Shown here: piece after piece, positions 2,551 to 12,969 of the stretch
Position numbering within the stretch: the first letter of the stretch is position 1
Layout of the letters: each line of letters starts with the position of its first letter
Origin: a virus
Lineage: Duplodnaviria > Heunggongvirae > Uroviricota > Caudoviricetes
Virus record (IMG/VR): IMGVR_UViG_2695420747_000007
Location: 1-13,233 of that record
Strand: one strand, 5' to 3'
DNA: 13,233 nucleotides
The notes under the pieces: generated by a model
The model's database searches: none
Told to the model about the DNA's origin: nothing
What the model saw: only the letters and a program-made list of their open reading frames with translations
Position numbers and translations under genes: made by a program

Positions 2551-3600
2551 TCAAACGATTAAATCCTGAACTTCCCTGACTGTCTGCTCAAAACGTCCGG
2601 TCTCCAGTTCAACGCCAATCGCACGACGCCCGAGCGCCAGTGCAGCTTTTACCGTTGAACCTGAGCCCATAAAAAAATCTGCAACCAGGTCACCCGGACG
2701 ACTGCTTGCGCTGATTATCTGCTGCAGCATTTCTGCCGGTTTTTCGCACGGATGTTTCCCGGGATAGAACTGCACCGGTTTATGTGTCCACACATCCGTG
2801 TACGGCACCTGCGCCGTCACACCAAAATACCGCCGCAGATGCTTATATTCACTCTGCAGCTCCACATACTGCCGGTTCAGTGACGTATACGTATCCACCA
2901 GCTGGTGGTGGGGCTTTTCCAGTTCACCGCGCTGATGTTTCTCTTCTGCCACCCGGGCAAACAGCGACTGTAATTTCAGATAATCGCTTTCGTTCGGTAG
3001 CTGCCACTGACTGGCACTGAACCAGTGCGACACCATGTTTTTCTTTCCTGTGGCATCTGCAATCTGTTTTGCCGTTATCCCCAGGGCCACGCGCGCATCA
3101 CGAAAGTAAGAAATCAGCGGGGCCATCACATGCTGTTTCAGTGCACTGCCCTTCGCCGCATACCCGGCATCTTTCGGACGATACGGCCCCTGATAATGTT
3201 CCGCGAACAGAATGCGCTCTGTGGCGGGGAAATACGCCCGCAGGCTTTCCTTGTTGCATCCGTTCCAGCGTCCGGACGGCTTCGCCCAGATAATATGGTT
3301 CAGCACACTGAAGCGTTCACGCATCATGATTTCGATATCAGATGCCAGGCGATGACCACAGAACAGGTAAAGACTTCCGACAGGTTTCAGCACCCGCCAG
3401 AACTGCGCCAGACACTGGTCCAGCCACTTCAGGTAATCATCGTCGCCCTTCCACTGGTTATCCCAGCCCTCAGGCTTCACTTTAAAGTACGGCGGGTCCG
3501 TGACTATCAAGTCAACAGAATTTTCGGGTAACGACCGGATAAATTCCAGGCAGTCGACGTTGATTAACTCACAACTGGATATTTTTACAGTGTTAAGCAT
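2551..3600 (-). CDS. Orphan DNA methyltransferase, beta-class (N6-adenine or N4-cytosine), 349 aa
   Basis: N-terminal motif IV DPPY (IVTDPPYF) precedes C-terminal motif I FxGxG (DFFMGSGST), the beta-class permutation. ATG at 3600 with weak SD. No adjacent endonuclease gene. Confidence 0.85.
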   Translation of the reverse strand: MLNTVKISSCELINVDCLEFIRSLPENSVDLIVTDPPYFKVKPEGWDNQWKGDDDYLKWLDQCLAQFWRVLKPVGSLYLFCGHRLASDIEIMMRERFSVLNHIIWAKPSGRWNGCNKESLRAYFPATERILFAEHYQGPYRPKDAGYAAKGSALKQHVMAPLISYFRDARVALGITAKQIADATGKKNMVSHWFSASQWQLPNESDYLKLQSLFARVAEEKHQRGELEKPHHQLVDTYTSLNRQYVELQSEYKHLRRYFGVTAQVPYTDVWTHKPVQFYPGKHPCEKPAEMLQQIISASSRPGDLVADFFMGSGSTVKAALALGRRAIGVELETGRFEQTVREVQDLIV

Positions 3601-3692
3601 GGATCATTAAGCCTGTCTCTGATAGGCTCATTCTGCTTTTGCGCAAAGCAGTGGGCCTGAGGTTTGCTTGTGAACCCAACGCATGAGCAGAT

Positions 3693-3723
3693 GGCTGGTG
3701 GGTGCCCCTAACACCCACCAGCC
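3693..3723. promoter_or_regulatory. Perfect 12-bp inverted repeat (GGCTGGTGGGTG-N7-CACCCACCAGCC) in the methyltransferase 5' region
   Basis: Read directly; arms are exact reverse complements and no T-tract follows on either strand, so it is not an intrinsic terminator. A second near-palindrome CTGCTTTTGCGCAAAGCAG lies at about 3632-3650. Confidence 0.4.
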
Positions 3724-3740
3724 GCCCATTTACCACAAAT

Positions 3741-3763
3741 AAAAAAGCCTTCACTGCGGAAGG
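3741..3763 (-). terminator. Intrinsic terminator after the small wHTH ORF
   Basis: Minus-strand hairpin GCCTTC-loop-GAAGGC (plus 3747-3763) followed by T6 (plus 3741-3746); overlaps the stop codon of the upstream ORF. Confidence 0.5.
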
Positions 3764-3948
3764 CGTCTGTAACAACCGAACTGATAGTCTGCCAGACCCG
3801 CCATAACCAGCTGGGTCAGTATTAACTGGCAGCGTTCGCGTGAAAGGTAAGTATTCTGCGCTATCTCCCCGACTGTCGCCGGTTCGGTAACGCTTAATTC
3901 ATTAAACACCACTCTGGCGGTTTCTGTCATATCCTGCTGTTTTAGCAT
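3751..3948 (-). CDS. Small putative winged-helix protein (65 aa)
   Basis: ATG at 3948 with SD-like AAGGGA 7 nt upstream; the track's longer ORF extends this upstream. Sequence MLKQQDMTETARVVFNELSVTEPATVGEIAQNTYLSRERCQLILTQLVMAGLADYQ looks like a small wHTH/FeoC-like fold. Inference only. Confidence 0.5.
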   Translation of the reverse strand: MLKQQDMTETARVVFNELSVTEPATVGEIAQNTYLSRERCQLILTQLVMAGLADYQFGCYRRLPQ

Positions 3949-4070
3949 GTCTTTTTCCCTTTTCCGGTTAACGTGACACACCAATAACTCTTGTCGAAAA
4001 AGCCAGCAAGCTGAAAGACAGGTATTCACCGCCACCAGCGCGTTTACTGTACTGACGCGATTTCAGTCAT

Positions 4071-4092
4071 AAAAAACCCGCCAGGTGGCGGG
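4071..4092 (-). terminator. tR'-like intrinsic terminator, copy 2
   Basis: Minus-strand hairpin CCCGCC-ACCT-GGCGGG (plus 4077-4092) followed by T6 (plus 4071-4076). Confidence 0.7.
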
Positions 4093-4141
4093 GTGTAAAA
4101 AATCTTCTAACGTCAGGCATAAAACGCCCATCGTTAGAGCA

Positions 4142-4169
4142 AATTTACCACAGATTCGGGAAAAATCAA
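4142..4169 (-). promoter_or_regulatory. Late promoter pR' with qut/pause region, copy 2
   Basis: Minus strand TTGATT (plus 4164-4169), 16-nt spacer, TAAATT (plus 4142-4147), then TGCTCTAACGATGGGCG; lies just downstream of the Q stop codon. Confidence 0.65.
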
Positions 4170-4174
4170 CAACA

Positions 4175-4996
4175 CTATCGCGTTACCCTCTTTAACTGCC
4201 GCTCCGCCCATGCCTCTTCAATGTCAAACCGAACCACCAACGTATCGTAAAAGCGTTTCACTGATTTTTTCCACGTATCAAGCGTGATAGCACTCGTCAC
4301 TTTGCATATGGCATTAAATGCCTCCGTTGATGGCAGCCTTTCACAGCCACGACCACCACAACGCTGGCAATCTCTGATAACAGGCATACCACGTTTTACC
4401 GACTCTTCACGATGAATGGCGACACCACGCCCACGGCAATCCTTACAGGCGGTGGAAACCTCACCCTTTCCGCCACACTCCGGACAGGCAACTTTTACCA
4501 CCTCCCTGACTTTTTTCCATTCTTCCCAGTAAGACGGATACACGCCTTTTGTGCACTTTGCCCACACTGGTGGCTTACCATCCGGATACTGGATCTTGTT
4601 TGTAAAAACCTCGCTTTCAATAAATTTTTTTCCGTGACAGCAGGGGCACTGTTTTTTGCTCGCCGCGCTACGGGCATAATCTTCAAACGCATACGAAGCC
4701 ATAATGCGCATCACTACCGGTTTTATTTCTGCCGGAAGTTTTCTCAACGCCGCCACACGATCGCACCGACTGAGTGCATAATCTGCCAGTAATTCTGTTG
4801 CCCGCGCCCTGTCATTCATACTGATGCCCATCTTCCCCAGGAACGCAGAAAACCCCATCTCAGCCCGATTCTGTGTCATGCCCTGCGCGGCCATCACATC
4901 AGTGATACTCAGCGCATCTTTTGACGTTGAGGCCGATGCATCGGTCAGGCCAGGGGATTTTGGGGAGTAGTATTTCGGTAAATCTTCCAGTTTCAT
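4175..4996 (-). CDS. Q-like late antiterminator (273 aa), zinc-ribbon type
   Basis: ATG at 4996 overlaps the rusA stop (ATGA). Four CxxC pairs. Position immediately upstream of the lambda-like pR'. Resembles the QuuQ/YdfT class from memory. Confidence 0.8.
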   Translation of the reverse strand: MKLEDLPKYYSPKSPGLTDASASTSKDALSITDVMAAQGMTQNRAEMGFSAFLGKMGISMNDRARATELLADYALSRCDRVAALRKLPAEIKPVVMRIMASYAFEDYARSAASKKQCPCCHGKKFIESEVFTNKIQYPDGKPPVWAKCTKGVYPSYWEEWKKVREVVKVACPECGGKGEVSTACKDCRGRGVAIHREESVKRGMPVIRDCQRCGGRGCERLPSTEAFNAICKVTSAITLDTWKKSVKRFYDTLVVRFDIEEAWAERQLKRVTR

Positions 4997-6430: not shown

Positions 6431-6709
6431 TTACCTCCAGATGCGTTGCTGGAATGTACGGGACGGACGCGGTGGGCGTTCGGAGTAAGGCAATCTGACT
6501 GAGATTATCCAGTGACGGTAGTCGAGGCTAAGGGCTTTTTTAACCTCGTATCCGCGCCTGCGGTAACACTGAATTATCCATTCAGCCTGCTCTTCAGTGC
6601 ATGGTGGATGCTGGAACCAGTCCGATTTGAATGCATGAAAACGCCGTCCGCACCTGCTGGCAAAGACGGCAGAATCATCAGAATTGTGTAATTTGGTATC
6701 GTGCGCCAT
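6431..6709 (-). CDS. Hypothetical nin-region protein (92 aa from the ATG at 6709; the track ORF extends to a TTG at 6820)
   Basis: Open frame whose stop (TAA 6431-6433) sits 1 nt before the GTG of the downstream gene. Start uncertain, no clear SD. Occupies the position of rem in Qin but identity is not established. Confidence 0.4.
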   Translation of the reverse strand: MAHDTKLHNSDDSAVFASRCGRRFHAFKSDWFQHPPCTEEQAEWIIQCYRRRGYEVKKALSLDYRHWIISVRLPYSERPPRPSRTFQQRIWR

Positions 6710-7070
6710 CGGTTGTCTCTGCTGGCGCAGCAGGTGCCAGTTGTTCAGGCTGGCGTATAAAGTATAAATAAACTGGTTCCAGTGTAAAGCCCCTACATTA
6801 ATGGAATAAAAGTCAAACAACAGATTGTTGGGATAAACACAACGCTTATTATTAAAAGCGATTAGATAAATTAAATTTTAATGTTATGCAATTTTACCAG
6901 ATCACCATAACATCTCGTTTGAAACCACCGAAACAACAACCATATCAATATTGATTATGTTAAAGTGAGTAAATATGGAAAACAACAAATCTGCACATTA
7001 CGCTCCTTTTTTATCTGTGATACTTTTTGTTTTATGCTGTGTGTGGGCATTATTTTTATAAAAATATTTA

Positions 7071-7097
7071 CAGATAAAATAAACCCGCCGAAGCGGG
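7071..7097 (-). terminator. hok mRNA 3' terminator / fold-back region
   Basis: Minus-strand hairpin CCCGC-TTCG-GCGGG (plus 7084-7097) followed by a T-rich run. The 3' segment CCTCAACGCACCC (plus about 7105-7117) is complementary to the predicted hok mRNA 5' end GGGTGCTTGAGG. Confidence 0.55.
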
Positions 7098-7167
7098 TTA
7101 AGCGCGGGTGCGTTGAGGATGCCTGACACATCAGAGGCGGCGAGGGATTTCTCCCTCGCCAAGTCTC

Positions 7168-7323
7168 TTACTCCTCAGGTTCGTAGACTGTGAAGACAGC
7201 GACCTCCATCTGGCCGGTTCGGATTCGTACCTCGCAGAGGTCTTTCCTCGTTACCAGTGCCGTCACTATGACGGTTAAACAGATGACGATCAGGGCGATT
7301 AACATCGCCTTTTGCTGCTTCAT
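7168..7323 (-). CDS. hok: Hok-family type I toxin (51 aa)
   Basis: MKQQKAMLIALIVICLTVIVTALVTRKDLCEVRIRTGQMEVAVFTVYEPEE, near-identical to HokD/RelF as recalled. SD AAGGAG 9 nt upstream. An in-frame upstream ATG at 7380 gives a 70-codon mok-like frame. Confidence 0.9.
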   Translation of the reverse strand: MKQQKAMLIALIVICLTVIVTALVTRKDLCEVRIRTGQMEVAVFTVYEPEE

Positions 7324-7336
7324 AGCCTGCTTCTCC

Positions 7337-7365
7337 TTGCCTTTCGGCACGTAAGAGGCTAACCT
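7337..7365 (+). promoter_or_regulatory. sok: sok antisense promoter
   Basis: Plus strand TTGCCT-17-TAACCT, colinear with the plasmid R1 sok promoter (TTGCGC-17-TATCCT) as I recall it; lies inside the mok-like leader, antisense to hok. Confidence 0.5.
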
Positions 7366-7371
7366 AGATTT

Positions 7372-7445
7372 GCCGTTCATAGATTGAGCCTCAGATTAAT
7401 GTTAAGCGTCTTGCAGGACGCGTAATGTTAACTGGGGCTTTTCTC
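7372..7445 (+). ncRNA. sok: Sok-like antisense RNA (approximate extent)
   Basis: Inferred from the promoter above and the usual Sok length of about 65 nt; the 3' end is not defined by a clean terminator. Confidence 0.35.
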
Positions 7446-7498
7446 TATCTGCCTTTGGTGTTCATGCCTGAGGCAGATAGCCTCAAGCACCCGCAGTC

Positions 7499-7526: not shown

Positions 7527-7581
7527 ACCGTTTTTGTCCAGCACAATAAATATCCAACTAAACCAATGGAGTTCGCTGTAT

Positions 7582-7761
7582 TTACCGCCAGTATTCAATG
7601 CACATGACCGCCATGAACACCCCTAAAAAAAGGGCATTTATATATCCAAATATTAATATCAAAACATCAACTTTTTCCATATACCTTGCTGTGAAGATGA
7701 TGGGCATACATGATACGAACAACCAGAACGCAACAAACAAAAACTGCAATGCGTTTTTCAT
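7582..7761 (-). CDS. Small hydrophobic two-helix membrane protein (59 aa)
   Basis: ATG at 7761 preceded by AGGAGG (4-nt spacer); MKNALQFLFVAFWLFVSCMPIIFTARYMEKVDVLILIFGYINALFLGVFMAVMCIEYWR. The track ORF extends to a GTG at 7800. Confidence 0.5.
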   Translation of the reverse strand: MKNALQFLFVAFWLFVSCMPIIFTARYMEKVDVLILIFGYINALFLGVFMAVMCIEYWR

Positions 7762-10763: not shown

Positions 10764-11189
10764 TCAATGCACAGCCACAATATTTCCTGCAGGGCCACCA
10801 CGATTCATCTGGTTGAAACCAGCGATCGCCACTGCGACAAAATCATCAGCGTCTCTCACCAGTCGTTCCCGCGTCTCCACTAGTTCCCGAAAATAGGCTG
10901 AGCTATGACTGCGCATTCGGGCCACCAGCAGAGGTGGCATTGCTTTTTCGATAGCTGGTAACAACGCCTGAATTTTTTTAACCGCATCAGGGGTGTCTTT
11001 CTCCACCCAGCGGAAAATTTTCTGAGTATTGCGAGCCAGGGCTTCCGGATGGCTGTCGTCATACAGTTCCGGGAACGTCATTCCCAGCTCGAAATACGCT
11101 TTGGTAATTTTCGCAGCCGGTACTTTTTCGCCGTCCGGATGCGCCCAGGCATTCATCGCCATGCGGATGTGTTCATGCTTGATTTTCAT
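10764..11189 (-). CDS. YdaT-like protein (141 aa)
   Basis: ATG at 11189 overlaps the cro-like stop (ATGA); SD GGGAG. N-terminus MKIKHEHI matches my recollection of Rac YdaT; position equals cII/ydaT in lambdoid maps. Confidence 0.5.
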   Translation of the reverse strand: MKIKHEHIRMAMNAWAHPDGEKVPAAKITKAYFELGMTFPELYDDSHPEALARNTQKIFRWVEKDTPDAVKKIQALLPAIEKAMPPLLVARMRSHSSAYFRELVETRERLVRDADDFVAVAIAGFNQMNRGGPAGNIVAVH

Positions 11190-11440
11190 GAATCAACTCC
11201 CATCAGCTTTTTCGTAGTAGTTTTATTCCTGCCAATAGTTAAAATTGCATCGGCAGAAAATAATCCGTTTGATGCAAGAGCGATTTTTTCAGCGTAATTT
11301 GTTTCGCCGGTATATTCTGTGCGAGGCAATTTTCCGTTATCCATCCATTTATAGATTGCTCTTTGGCTGACACCACAAACGTCGGCCACAACAGCAACGC
11401 GAACAGTTTTGATTACATCTTCAAGTGTTTTCTGGTTCAT
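11186..11440 (-). CDS. Cro-like / YdaS-like HTH regulator (84 aa)
   Basis: ATG at 11440 with SD GAGGGTGA (the track ORF extends upstream to a non-ATG start). HTH-like segment VADVCGVSQRAIYKWMDNGKLP; divergent from the repressor gene. Confidence 0.65.
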   Translation of the reverse strand: MNQKTLEDVIKTVRVAVVADVCGVSQRAIYKWMDNGKLPRTEYTGETNYAEKIALASNGLFSADAILTIGRNKTTTKKLMGVDS

Positions 11441-11456
11441 ATCACCCTCACAATGT

Positions 11457-11512
11457 GAACTTTGAGTACATGCTATAACAGAACTGACAGTACATTCAAG
11501 AGCGAATATCAT
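11457..11512. promoter_or_regulatory. OR-like divergent promoter/operator region
   Basis: Two 15-bp direct repeats, GAACTTTGAGTACAT (11457-11471) and GAACTGACAGTACAT (11481-11495). Plus-strand CTGACA-17-TATCAT ends 7 nt before the repressor ATG (leaderless-type). Minus-strand TTGAAT...TATAGC for the cro-like gene. Confidence 0.5.
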
Positions 11513-11519
11513 TGAACTT

Positions 11520-11939
11520 ATGGTTCATGAAGATAAAGCGCGTAAAGAGTTCGCCAGTAGGCTTGCGCTAGCCTGTGAAAACGCTGGTTATGAACAACAT
11601 GGAAGGCAGGCAGAAATTGCCCGTCGAATGAAATTAACACCAAAAGCGGTTAGCAAATGGTTTAATGGCGAAACAATTCCTCGCCGGGAGAAATTAAGGG
11701 AATTAGCAACACTAATAGGAACAACACCAACCTATCTTTTGGGAGAGGATACAGAAGAAAGTGGACAGGTACGTTTCTATCAGGAGTTAAATCCAAGACA
11801 AAAAATCATCATTGACCTTCTGGACGAGCTCCCTGACAGTGAGACAGATGAACTTTTAAAAACTCTTGAAGAGAAAAAACAGAAGTACAATGCAATTTAC
11901 GAAGAGTTAGCACGAAAGAAAAAACAAAAAGCCTCTTAA
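11520..11939 (+). CDS. DicA-family prophage repressor (139 aa, XRE-type HTH, no peptidase domain)
   Basis: HTH segment MKLTPKAVSKWFNGETIPRREKLRELATLIGTTPTYLLG; C-terminal helical tail. No SD before the ATG. Architecture matches DicA/RacR-type repressors as recalled. Confidence 0.75.
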   Translation: MVHEDKARKEFASRLALACENAGYEQHGRQAEIARRMKLTPKAVSKWFNGETIPRREKLRELATLIGTTPTYLLGEDTEESGQVRFYQELNPRQKIIIDLLDELPDSETDELLKTLEEKKQKYNAIYEELARKKKQKAS

Positions 11940-12014
11940 ACCAGCATAAATCCGGTAGCGCCTTCCTCCGGGTTTGTGCTTCACTTTATCCCATCTCATT
12001 TTTTTACACACAAA

Positions 12015-12059
12015 ATGTACTAAATGTACTTTACAACAATGAACACAAAGTACATTATA
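12015..12059 (+). promoter_or_regulatory. OL-like operator/promoter region downstream of the repressor gene
   Basis: ATGTACT at 12015 and 12024 and inverted AGTACAT at 12049, the same heptamer as in OR; candidate promoter TTTACA-(17-18)-ATTATA reading rightward. Confidence 0.4.
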
Positions 12060-12236
12060 TACCTGCCACCCACCCCGCCCCACAGAATGCAGGGCAATAC
12101 TTCGAGTTACCAGGCAGTGGTCAGGGGTTAAGTAGCCAGCCCGAGGCGTAAGAACATGACGGCAGGGTTCAACTTTAATAACTATGCAGCAGGTTTTTGT
12201 TCCGCTACCCCGGCGTTAAGGGGAAATGAGGTCAGC

Positions 12237-12392
12237 ATGGATACTATCAATCTTGGCAACAGCGAATCTCTGGTATGTGGCGTGTTCCCCAACCAGGACG
12301 GTACGTTCACCGCAATGACGTATACCAAAAGCAAAACGTTTAAAACCGAAAATGGTGCCCGTCGCTGGCTGGAAAGAAACTCAGGTGAGTGA
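12237..12392 (+). CDS. YdfA-like small protein (51 aa)
   Basis: ATG at 12237 with GAGG 5 nt upstream; MDTINLGNSESLVCGVFPNQDGTFTAMTYTKSKTFKTENGARRWLERNSGE; resembles Qin YdfA from memory. The track ORF starts at an upstream ATG (12156). Confidence 0.55.
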   Translation: MDTINLGNSESLVCGVFPNQDGTFTAMTYTKSKTFKTENGARRWLERNSGE

Positions 12393-12393
12393 T

Positions 12394-12969
12394 ATGGATT
12401 TCGACACAATCATGGAAAAGGCTTACGAAGAATACTTCGAAGGCCTTGCCGAAGGCGAAGAAGCTCTCAGCTTCAGTGAGTTTAAACAGGCACTCAGAAT
12501 AAGAATGTGCTCTCACAATGACGCGGAGCACAAATATGAGAAGCAAAATCAGACCGCAGAAAATTTTGTTCTGGAACCCGGAGAAACGCTTTTCAAAATT
12601 CCCGTTACGTGCCCCATTTGCGGTTTTACATCAGAAGAACTTGACGACTCCTGTAACAATCAGGAAACAACCAAGTATGTCGAAGATGATACCGAGTGCG
12701 CACGAAGAACGATTATATCCACGAGTCCAAACTCCAGGGCCAATAAATCTCACTTTGAGAGGGTGATTAATCCACTCCCCCAAACCAATAAAAAAGATGC
12801 CGGAGGACAAAAAACCCAATGGAACAACGGGATATCTGTCAAAAAAAGACGTTCCATTAAAGACAAACAACGCAGCGCCAACAACTGTAAGCGCTTTATA
12901 CCAGTAATCAATTTTCATGTTCTTAAGCGGATTTATTGGTGGTTGCGACATTGCTTAATGAATCCTTAA
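12394..12969 (+). CDS. Hypothetical early-left operon protein (191 aa), CPICGF motif; C-terminal part low-complexity
   Basis: ATG at 12394 is 1 nt after the YdfA-like stop, with SD AGGTGAG. The N-terminal part is protein-like; the last 60 or so codons are A-rich and basic and may be fortuitous. Confidence 0.4.
   Translation: MDFDTIMEKAYEEYFEGLAEGEEALSFSEFKQALRIRMCSHNDAEHKYEKQNQTAENFVLEPGETLFKIPVTCPICGFTSEELDDSCNNQETTKYVEDDTECARRTIISTSPNSRANKSHFERVINPLPQTNKKDAGGQKTQWNNGISVKKRRSIKDKQRSANNCKRFIPVINFHVLKRIYWWLRHCLMNP

Follow-up and report, generated by a model that had tools for sequence, protein, structure and literature searches.

The DNA analyzed here (the window, 13,233 nucleotides) matches a Qin-site prophage of E. 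coli strain 53 at 100% identity and phage Tritos of E. coli LF82 at 99%. Tritos makes virions and plaques, and its CI gene is expressed in lysogens (PMC9928086). On the plus strand, the gene for a DicA-type maintenance repressor of 139 amino acids (11520..11939) is followed by a hairpin (11943..11980, +; -19.2 kcal/mol, z -4.7) that may terminate the repressor transcript; it has no clean T run, and the scan that gave the promoters did not call it. Farther along the same strand is ydfA (12237..12392; Pfam DUF1391, 3.7e-27; also named in the RefSeq annotation of the identical prophage), the first gene of the operon predicted to be repressed. Transcribed divergently, on the minus strand, are an 84-amino-acid cro-like helix-turn-helix (HTH) protein with its own Shine-Dalgarno (SD) sequence, GAGGGTG (11186..11440; phrog_35, 6.8e-14), and a YdaT/CII-like regulator (10764..11189; Pfam YdaT_toxin, 1.1e-9; phrog_163, CII-like, 3.5e-45). 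The open reading frames, their Pfam and PHROG assignments, and the annotation of the identical prophage and of Tritos give a lambdoid gene order, with cro-like, YdaT/CII-like, replication, and Q genes on one side and ydfA..dicB, exo, xis, and int on the other. No Rfam family matched in or near the immunity region; DicF would start only at the window's extreme end. As judged from its sequence, the region is the lysis/lysogeny (immunity) switch of a Qin/Tritos-type (Qin-family) lambdoid prophage of E. coli.

Most of the 1.35-kb region is carried by 530 of 5,426 complete E. coli genomes (~10%), and a scan of IMG/VR contigs, which returned only 99–100% identical copies, gave 599 matching stretches, 355 of them encoding a repressor relative. 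For comparison we used relatives from E. coli, Salmonella, Raoultella, and metagenomes, representing 22 distinct control-region versions.

The repressor consists of an N-terminal HTH (residues ~2–74), a disordered linker (78–88), and C-terminal helices (92–103 and 106–138), and its AF2 model (mean pLDDT 80.6) has a C terminus of two helices. It is 29% identical to K-12 DicA over 112 amino acids (BLASTP, E 5e-15) in an alignment that spans residues 30–137 and includes both the HTH and the C-terminal helical domain; both proteins match phrog_5736 through their C-terminal part. A C-terminal motif, LTxRQxxLLxLFxxLPxxE...EEKK...EEL, is visible in an alignment of 32 sequences. The protein thus has the build of the DicA/Gifsy short repressors, which are ~130–160 amino acids long with an N-terminal XRE-type HTH and a C-terminal helical motif. 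Pfam detects only HTH domains (HTH_3, 1.8e-9; HTH_31) and no Peptidase_S24, and the S24 autocleavage C terminus with its Ala-Gly site is a lambdoid hallmark that the region lacks. Across the relatives, the recognition-helix region is 95–100% identical in those from E. coli and those of S24 type and 81–86% identical in two from Salmonella. Similarity to RacR is restricted to the HTH (E 5e-4). Matches in the PDB, by sequence and by fold, were only to generic XRE HTH domains, and those to repressors under antirepressor control (SinR/SinI, an arbitrium-phage entry, and a Salmonella temperate-phage repressor) were weak and HTH-driven. In lysogens, the Tritos orthologue is expressed 24-fold over the prophage background (PMC9928086).

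Upstream of the repressor gene, the promoter scan found a single plus-strand match, CTGACA-17-TATCAT (11484..11512; 10/12 matches), the predicted P_RM-like maintenance promoter. Since its -10 hexamer ends 7 nt before the repressor ATG at 11520, transcription would be expected to start at 11519/11520; given this 7-nt discriminator, the first transcribed base might be the T at 11519, which would leave a 1-nt leader. There is no alternative in-frame start, as this ATG is the first ATG, GTG, or TTG after the in-frame TGA at 11463–65. Anti-SD pairing of the 20 nt upstream amounts to -1.9 kcal/mol, the second weakest in the prophage (rank 31 of 32 genes), compared to -6.1 for the divergent cro-like gene and -8.1 for ydfA. 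In 10 loci (the window and nine relatives), the promoter is kept as CTGAnA-17-TA(T/C)nnT, always 7 nt before the ATG, with TATCAT, TATAAT, TATGAT, TACAAT, or TATACT (TAnnnT) as the -10. In all loci the start codon is ATG, so that the repressor gene has the two features of leaderless messages, an AUG and no SD. This geometry, conserved in all relatives, is consistent with a leaderless repressor mRNA, as described for dicA, racR, and ymfK by dRNA-seq (PMC4681348) and for paaR2 by 5′ RACE (PMC8630535). Thus, the earlier note's description of a DicA-type repressor with no LexA-like peptidase domain, with CTGACA-17-TATCAT as the best plus-strand promoter (like the other promoters here, a match to consensus) ahead of an ATG with no SD, is borne out by the homology, Pfam, promoter, and pairing results.

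On the minus strand, a P_R-like leftward lytic promoter can be read as TTGAAT-16-TATAGC after TGt, an extended -10 (11472..11499). It scores below the threshold of the promoter scan, and TATAGC is a poor hexamer whose last two bases are polymorphic in the population (IMG/VR contigs); relatives have TTGCGT-16-CATAAT or TATAAT. The cro-like proteins are homologous (57–85% identity) in every locus with the same operators, co-vary with those operators, and are unrelated to K-12 DicC. The YdaT-like regulator is 33% identical to Rac YdaT. Across the cro stop and the ydaT start lies a YdaT-type inverted repeat, TTGATTTTCATGAATCAA (11179..11196), with no mismatches to TTGATT-N6-AATCAA; every other match in the window has three. 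It is presumably a P_RE-like control site, given that a YdaT site at the same position in CP-933P has been footprinted and associated with P_RE (PMC9986795).

The heptamer AGTACAT has five exact matches in the 13,233 bp, all within two control regions (11465–71 and 11489–95 on the plus strand, 12015–21 and 12024–30 on the minus strand, and 12049–55 on the plus strand); chance expectation is 1.06, and none of 200 shuffles reached five. These heptamers are parts of a 17-bp palindrome, ATGWACT-nWn-AGTWCAT, and its core, GWAC-N5-GTWC, also occurs exactly five times in the window, each time in a control region, where 0.58 occurrences would be expected in total. The earlier note had counted two heptamers between the divergent genes and three after the repressor stop. 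Their placement is as it described and the two clusters are real, but the units are three plus two palindromic operators rather than two plus three heptamers: the minus-strand heptamers at 12015 and 12024 are the halves of a single operator, and a third operator in the divergent region, over the ATG, contains no heptamer and was missed.

The divergent region (79 bp) holds three predicted operators with centers 24 and 33 bp apart. OR1 (GTGAACTTTGAGTACAT, 11455..11471) lies just downstream of the leftward -10, over the predicted cro-like start (near 11465), at -63 from the repressor ATG in all loci compared and in 79 of 80 IMG/VR contigs. OR2 (CAGAACTGACAGTACAT, 11479..11495) has the weakest left half-site, lies at position -39 relative to the ATG in every locus, and occupies the spacer of the leftward promoter; the repressor promoter's -35 falls within this operator. 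OR3 (TTGAACTTATGGTTCAT, 11512..11528) reaches across the repressor's predicted +1 and start codon; its position, -6 from the ATG, holds in all loci, even where codon 3 differs. The other two, also predicted, sit upstream of ydfA on TTTACA-17-CATTAT (12030..12058, +; 9/12 matches), the predicted promoter of the ydfA..dicF-dicB operon (dicBp/P_L equivalent), with a transcript start expected near 12065. OL2 (ATGTACTAAATGTACTT, 12015..12031) abuts and overlaps its -35, and OL1 (ATGAACACAAAGTACAT, 12039..12055), the best consensus match, lies over the spacer and reaches into the first bases of the -10.

Several observations support these sites as operators. Half-sites are invariant across loci and central bases vary. 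OL1 and OL2 are always 24 bp apart, and the pair is found with its promoter from 69 to 1,715 bp after the repressor stop, amid unrelated flanks and despite morons (higBA, AAA ATPase) between the repressor and OL; across eight loci with otherwise unrelated flanks, TTTACA does not vary and the -10 is retained. Beyond the control regions, the core has only three further matches in ~140 kb of the loci compared and two in 80 IMG/VR contigs (462 kb). As the pattern was derived from the window itself, evidence independent of the AGTACAT heptamers comes only from OR3 and the sites in other loci, and since the divergent region is 82% identical across diverged relatives, the conservation of position there partly reflects shared ancestry rather than independent evidence. 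A dimeric DicA-type repressor would be expected to recognize 17-bp palindromes of this kind.

How might the switch work? Occupancy of OR1 and OR2 would block the leftward promoter for the cro-like, YdaT, and replication genes, occupancy of OL1 and OL2 would block the dicB-operon promoter, and OR2 on the repressor -35 together with OR3 on the +1 and ATG would provide negative autoregulation. The repressor mRNA would begin at the AUG or 1 nt before it and undergo leaderless translation. The cro-like protein probably uses the same operators with the preference reversed, and YdaT, acting from its own palindrome where cro meets ydaT, probably switches on an establishment promoter. Derepression would occur through an antirepressor directed against the C-terminal helical domain, as with Rem and DicA or GfoA and GfoR, or through stochastic loss of repressor. 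Because OR2 overlaps the repressor -35, the layout does not imply lambda-style activation from OR2. Unless weak, OR2 in this position would stop repressor synthesis whenever P_R is repressed. At low concentration, DicA and PaaR2 reportedly activate their own promoters (PaaR2: PMC8630535), and such self-activation is not obviously allowed by the operator layout here. Lacking both an autocleavage domain in the repressor and a LexA box in the prophage, the switch would not couple derepression directly to the SOS response. The resemblance to lambda cI/OR/OL that had been proposed for the region holds, as the gene order is lambdoid and predicted palindromic operators lie on both divergent promoters, with a second set at the P_L equivalent. 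Overall, we favor a DicA-type switch with palindromic operators, a leaderless repressor mRNA, and no direct SOS wiring as the best explanation, with a probability of about 0.8.

Other readings of the repressor transcript and of the palindromes can be envisioned. The repressor could be made mainly from a leadered upstream transcript, such as one that a P_RE-like promoter within or behind the cro-like gene would produce under YdaT activation, in which case CTGACA-17-TATCAT would not be the working promoter and the ATG would be an internal SD-less start. Such a transcript would fit the perfect YdaT site at 11179–11196, where CP-933P has its P_RE-associated site, the absence of an obvious dicA promoter in Qin (Yun et al.), and the position of OR2, which covers the proposed -35 so that the promoter should be shut in a lysogen. 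However, we consider this unlikely, since a near-consensus -10 lies exactly 7 nt before the ATG in 10 diverged loci in which the bases between vary, the start is always the ATG that leaderless translation requires, a leadered mRNA with so low an SD score would be poorly translated, and leaderless starts have been mapped for the homologues dicA, racR, and paaR2. A P_RE product would most likely add to a leaderless P_RM transcript, as in lambda, rather than replace it. It is more improbable still that the palindromes are bound mainly by the cro-like protein or some other factor, with the 139-amino-acid protein binding elsewhere or at only some of them. The cro-like protein co-varies with the sites as the N-terminal domain of the repressor does, so covariation cannot separate the two, and in an in vivo assay Qin DicA bound Oc and not the predicted Om and Oa (Yun et al.). 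Nevertheless, the OL pair lies on the promoter of an operon that the maintenance repressor must silence, and the recognition region of the repressor is as strongly conserved among relatives as described above. CI and Cro of lambdoid phages use common operators. In CP-933P, PaaR2 and YdaS footprint the same operator set (PMC8630535).

For induction, which had been supposed to need an antirepressor or another route, a search elsewhere in the prophage yielded no antirepressor candidate. DicA is relieved by the antirepressor Rem (PMC10448788), and no Rem homologue was found by BLASTP, tblastn, or PHROG, with tblastn covering the window, Tritos, strain 53, and three relatives. The 92-amino-acid ORF at the rem position (6431–6709) shows no similarity to Rem; its PHROG, whose function is unknown, is not that of Rem. 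No antirepressor is annotated in the identical prophage or in Tritos, and neither the strain 53 prophage nor the examined 36 kb of Tritos contains an exact LexA box (CTGT-N8-ACAG). A LexA-controlled antirepressor in the style of Gifsy was therefore discounted, the seven one-mismatch matches in the window being not above chance; one of them (7576–7591) is at the 3′ end of a small membrane-protein ORF rather than before a plausible gene. The ImmA/IrrE protease of Tritos is absent from the window and from strain 53, which places it outside the conserved module, and was rejected as the inducer. It is possible, though we lean the other way, that no antirepressor is involved and that release occurs by stochastic flipping, general proteolysis, or repressor dilution, perhaps with temperature sensitivity, making the element effectively non-inducible. 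In support, a Rem homologue, an annotated antirepressor, and a LexA box are all absent across the whole prophage, spontaneous release of Tritos amounts to ~3e6 genomes/mL, and the phages reported to be induced by ciprofloxacin or trimethoprim do not include Tritos (PMC9928086). Ciprofloxacin induction was reported only for Gally and Cyrano, and trimethoprim lowered Tritos production 3.4-fold (PMC9928086). DicA also binds more weakly at 37°C than at 25°C (Yun et al.), in keeping with its reported temperature sensitivity. On the other hand, all characterized short repressors are countered by protein antirepressors (Rem for DicA; GfoA/GftA for the Gifsy repressors), some of which act in trans from another prophage. 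Small antirepressors are also diverse, and homology searches easily overlook them, so a trans-acting or unrecognized antirepressor may operate on this switch.

The same DNA-binding domain, operators, and cro occur in some relatives with an S24-peptidase C terminus. A tentative generalization, to which we give somewhat less than an even chance, is that the immunity unit consists of the N-terminal DNA-binding domain, five operators, and cro, coupled to either of two interchangeable C-terminal induction modules: the DicA-type helical domain (E. coli and Salmonella phages) or the S24 autoprotease (Raoultella, Klebsiella, and metagenomic phages). In that case, SOS inducibility would vary among homoimmune phages, and the DicA-type version here, having no Rem-like or LexA-controlled antirepressor, would answer to a trigger not yet known. 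One binding module joined to a cleavable or non-cleavable C terminus would be a natural case of induction mode evolving independently of immunity specificity. These two points, the S24 C terminus on the same binding domain, operators, and cro, and the failure to find a Rem homologue or LexA box, are mildly new. The main features are already published for close analogues (leaderless dicA, racR, and paaR2; DicA/Rem and the Gifsy repressor/antirepressor pairs), so that the region represents a new immunity allele of a known kind, with DicA, RacR, and PaaR2 as precedents, and current understanding of lambdoid switches is unchanged. The immunity type is common and should control the cell-division inhibitors dicF and dicB as well as a functional phage of the Crohn's-associated strain LF82. 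The map of operators and promoters can serve directly in footprinting, in reporter fusions, and in typing Qin-like prophages by immunity.

Among known systems, the switch is essentially identical to that of the functional phage Tritos and, on comparison of proteins and sites, is a heteroimmune allele of the dicA-dicC-dicBp module. The K-12 Qin module occupies the same chromosomal site, next to rspB, with the same order of cro-type gene, repressor, and ydfA..dicF-dicB. The repressors are homologous in both domains and neither has an S24 domain, operators lie in the divergent region and at the dicB-operon promoter (one flanking the -35, one in the spacer/-10), and both repressor ATGs lack an SD, the dicA mRNA being leaderless (PMC4681348). 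Since the repressors are only 29% identical and the Qin operators are TTAG-N6-CTAA rather than GWAC-N5-GTWC, the two switches should be heteroimmune. Qin further differs in that its cro-type protein is unrelated, Rem is present, and dicA has no recognizable promoter (Yun et al.), whereas here the repressor promoter is near consensus, no Rem homologue was found, and an intact YdaT/CII-like gene accompanies a functional phage.

The RacR-YdaS-YdaT region of Rac shares the architecture, the leaderless repressor mRNA in its case being that of racR (PMC4681348), and a related YdaT, but there the repressor likeness is confined to the HTH. GfoR, GtgR, and GfhR of Salmonella Gifsy-1/-2/-3 are short lambdoid repressors that are not cleaved on induction, in a class that names DicA and RacR; unlike the present prophage, which has no such box or dinI-like gene, the Gifsy prophages have, beyond the replication genes on the downstream side, a LexA box and then a dinI-antirepressor operon. 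Lambda itself, like the window, has three 17-bp operators between divergent repressor and cro genes, with the first pair spaced 24 bp, a further set of operators at the leftward promoter, a maintenance transcript that is leaderless (in the window, by prediction), and a CII-type establishment regulator. It differs in its S24 autocleavage domain and in having three OL sites rather than two; here, the divergent promoters interleave, with starts ~55 bp apart, OR2 is on the repressor -35 rather than beside it, and the third site is on the start codon. Finally, PaaR2-YdaS-YdaT of CP-933P (E. coli O157:H7) resembles the window in its published features: a short CI analogue with leaderless translation (5′ RACE), repeated palindromic operators in OR and P_L, YdaS as Cro, YdaT as CII, and an identical YdaT palindrome, TTGATT-N6-AATCAA, at the ydaS/ydaT junction. 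Its operators are four 18-bp repeats of another sequence, and PaaR2 is co-transcribed with the paaA2-parE2 toxin-antitoxin pair, which has no counterpart here.

ORFs, Pfam and PHROG matches and the annotation of an identical prophage and of phage Tritos show that the window contains a lambdoid prophage's early region. Q, rusA, DUF968, hok/sok, DUF977 and a replication gene come before a YdaT/CII-like gene (10764–11189, minus strand) and a cro-like HTH gene (11186–11440, minus); a 79-bp gap separates the latter from the 139-aa HTH repressor gene (11520–11939, plus), beyond which lie ydfA (12237–12392) and, outside the window, dicF, dicB, exo, xis and int. Over the 1.35 kb that surround the immunity region, the sequence matches a prophage of E. 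coli strain 53 at 100% identity; that prophage is inserted beside rspB, the site of the cryptic K-12 prophage Qin. Identity to Tritos, a functional phage of the adherent-invasive strain LF82, is 99%. Most of this stretch is present in ~10% of complete E. coli genomes.

The window also contains a direct repeat of ~1.67 kb (95–880 and 1764–2540, with 300-nt blocks 100% identical), both copies of which carry tRNA-Arg(tct) and a tRNA with a CAT anticodon. Two paralogous Q-type antiterminator genes (987–1709 and 4175–4996, both minus) lie on either side of a DNA methyltransferase gene (2551–3600, minus); the otherwise identical strain 53 prophage has a single Q and a single tRNA pair. In the place of K-12 ydfB/ydfC are two ORFs that overlap on opposite strands, one of 205 aa (12352–12969, plus; phrog_35040, function unknown) and a hydrophobic one of 95 aa (12631–12918, minus). 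Both are missing from the RefSeq annotation, which lists ydfB as truncated.

The earlier note had drawn attention to repeats of AGTACAT near the repressor gene. This heptamer occurs five times in the window (1.06 expected; none of 200 shuffles reached five), confined to the places where it had been noticed. Each heptamer is one half of a palindrome whose self-complementary core is GWAC-N5-GTWC. The 13.2 kb contain exactly five matches to this core (0.58 expected): three in the divergent region, at 11457, 11481 and 11514, and two past the repressor gene, at 12017 and 12041. These correspond to five predicted 17-mer operators with the consensus ATGWACT-nWn-AGTWCAT: OR1 (11455–11471), OR2 (11479–11495) and OR3 (11512–11528; TTGAACTTATGGTTCAT) between the cro-like and repressor genes, and OL2 (12015–12031) and OL1 (12039–12055) at the ydfA/dicB-operon promoter. 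Center-to-center spacings are 24 and 33 bp for OR and 24 bp for OL. OR3, which spans the repressor start codon, had been overlooked because it lacks an AGTACAT heptamer; the two minus-strand heptamers previously counted separately are present, but form the two halves of a single site, OL2.

To compare this arrangement with that of relatives, the repressor was used as a database query and the DNA of the proteins found, which fell into three groups, was retrieved. E. coli variants are 89% identical, Salmonella proteins are 62–65% identical with the same C terminus, and proteins from Raoultella, Klebsiella and metagenomes share the N-terminal 76 residues alone (67–75% identical; 20 of 21 residues in the HTH stretch), joined to an S24 peptidase domain. 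All of the retrieved DNA has the core pattern at precisely −63, −39 and −6 relative to the ATG, and wherever the contig extends far enough, a pair with 24-bp spacing lies on a TTTACA-17-CATTAT promoter, 69 to 1,715 bp past the repressor stop. Elsewhere the pattern has three matches in ~140 kb. Half-sites are invariant and central bases vary. Another 80 contigs from IMG/VR (462 kb; repressor 99–100% identical) have the sites at the same offsets and contain two matches elsewhere in total. Because the diverged relatives share 82% identity over the whole divergent region, common descent accounts for part of the positional conservation there. Stronger evidence comes from OL: 41 bp are kept between lineages within unrelated flanking DNA, and repressor and OL pair are separated in some lineages by an inserted higBA pair or AAA ATPase gene. 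These morons occupy 3553–4220 and 3588–4255 of loci L004 and L009 (higB-HTH pairs, Salmonella prophages) and 3808–5250 of L005 (a 480-aa AAA ATPase, Raoultella).

The repressor itself contains an HTH_3 domain and no S24 peptidase by Pfam search, bearing out the earlier view that it lacks a LexA-like peptidase domain. It aligns with K-12 DicA over residues 30–137 (29% identity, E 5e-15). The alignment takes in the C-terminal part, through which both proteins match phrog_5736. The motif LTxRQxxLLxLFxxLPxxE...EEKK...EEL is common to 31 relatives of 120–170 aa. In an AlphaFold model (mean pLDDT 80.6), five helices make up the HTH domain, and a disordered linker (78–88) connects it to two C-terminal helices (92–103 and 106–138); fold and sequence searches of the PDB returned generic XRE matches and nothing more specific. 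The S24-fused relatives (L005, 3013–3723; L007/L008, 3001–3708; L014, 4009–4588, in locus coordinates) all carry the three OR sites described above; in L005 and L014 the OL pair and a homologous cro are present as well. The arrangement suggests that the C-terminal module has been exchanged inside one immunity type. In L007/L008 a Q-type antiterminator gene, not cro, is divergent from the repressor gene.

A leaderless repressor transcript had also been proposed, and each of its sequence features holds. CTGACA-17-TATCAT (11484–11512) is the sole plus-strand promoter-like site ahead of the gene in a promoter scan, and 7 nt separate its −10 from the ATG, the earliest possible start past an in-frame TGA. 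Anti-Shine-Dalgarno pairing in the preceding 20 nt is only −1.9 kcal/mol (rank 31 of 32 prophage genes); the ribosome-binding sites of the cro-like gene and ydfA are ordinary. All relatives start with ATG and have, 7 nt ahead of it, a hexamer that fits TAnnnT (TATCAT, TATAAT, TATGAT, TACAAT or TATACT), with CTGAnA 17 nt upstream. From this geometry we predict that the transcript begins with the A of the AUG or the preceding base. A stable hairpin lies 3′ of the repressor stop.

The leftward promoter, predicted by reading the sequence, is TTGAAT-16-TATAGC with an upstream TG (TTGCGT-16-CATAAT or TATAAT in relatives). OR2 occupies its spacer and OR1 starts directly after its −10. Since the divergent promoters interleave and the −35 of the repressor promoter falls within OR2, the layout favors negative autoregulation, which the repressor would exert through OR2 and OR3, and does not appear to favor lambda-style activation from OR2. 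DicA and PaaR2, however, are reported to stimulate their own promoters when present at low concentration, which sits uneasily with this view. Polymorphisms of the divergent region in the 80 IMG/VR contigs fall mostly in the final bases of the leftward −10 (11472–11477; TATAGC versus TATAGT, TATAGA or TATAAC) and the adjoining OR1 base, suggesting natural variation in lytic promoter strength.

How might such a prophage be induced? Gifsy repressors, of which DicA and RacR are named as relatives, are not cleaved and are taken off DNA by LexA-controlled antirepressors (Lemire et al., PMC3121763), and Rem, the Qin antirepressor, derepresses dicBp 165-fold (Ragunathan and Vanderpool, PMC10448788). 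Searches of the prophage found no Rem homologue, dinI-like gene or annotated antirepressor, and no exact LexA box occurs anywhere in the element. This fits the published behavior of Tritos, which is released spontaneously and forms plaques, with its CI gene expressed in lysogens; ciprofloxacin induction was reported for Gally and Cyrano only, and trimethoprim reduced Tritos production (PMC9928086). At the position of Qin rem lies a 92-aa ORF (6431–6709, minus; phrog_1212, function unknown) that is unrelated to Rem and adjoins an AT-rich gap (6710–7167). The hokD/sok toxin-antitoxin locus follows (7168–7492, minus; Rfam sok, 111.7 bits), then a very hydrophobic ORF of 59 aa that matches no family (7582–7761, minus). 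Tritos differs in having an ImmA/IrrE-HTH gene and another ORF inserted between the 92-aa ORF and hokD.

The earlier reading is thus right in substance, and the region, already annotated CI/Cro in Tritos, is an allele of Qin's dicA-dicC-dicBp module that is heteroimmune and has its YdaT arm intact. Our analysis adds a predicted map of operators and promoters with comparative support, a third putative operator on the start codon, the occurrence of the same DNA-binding domain, operators and cro with an S24 autoprotease C terminus as well, and the seeming lack of a recognizable antirepressor or SOS link in this prophage. The cro-like proteins of all compared loci are homologous (57–85% identity), and DicC of Qin is unrelated to them. 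The short non-cleavable repressor, leaderless maintenance transcript and operators flanking the repressor gene are all documented for homologues: of just five leaderless mRNAs that transcript mapping detected in E. coli K-12, three are those of dicA, racR (Rac) and ymfK (e14) (PMC4681348), and 5′ RACE and N-terminal sequencing showed PaaR2, the CI analogue of CP-933P, to be leaderless (PMC8630535). The YdaT arm, too, has its counterpart. A perfect TTGATT-N6-AATCAA palindrome (TTGATTTTCATGAATCAA, 11179–11196) lies across the cro-like stop and ydaT start, and in CP-933P YdaT footprints its main site, OM, of the same form and at exactly the corresponding position (PMC9986795).
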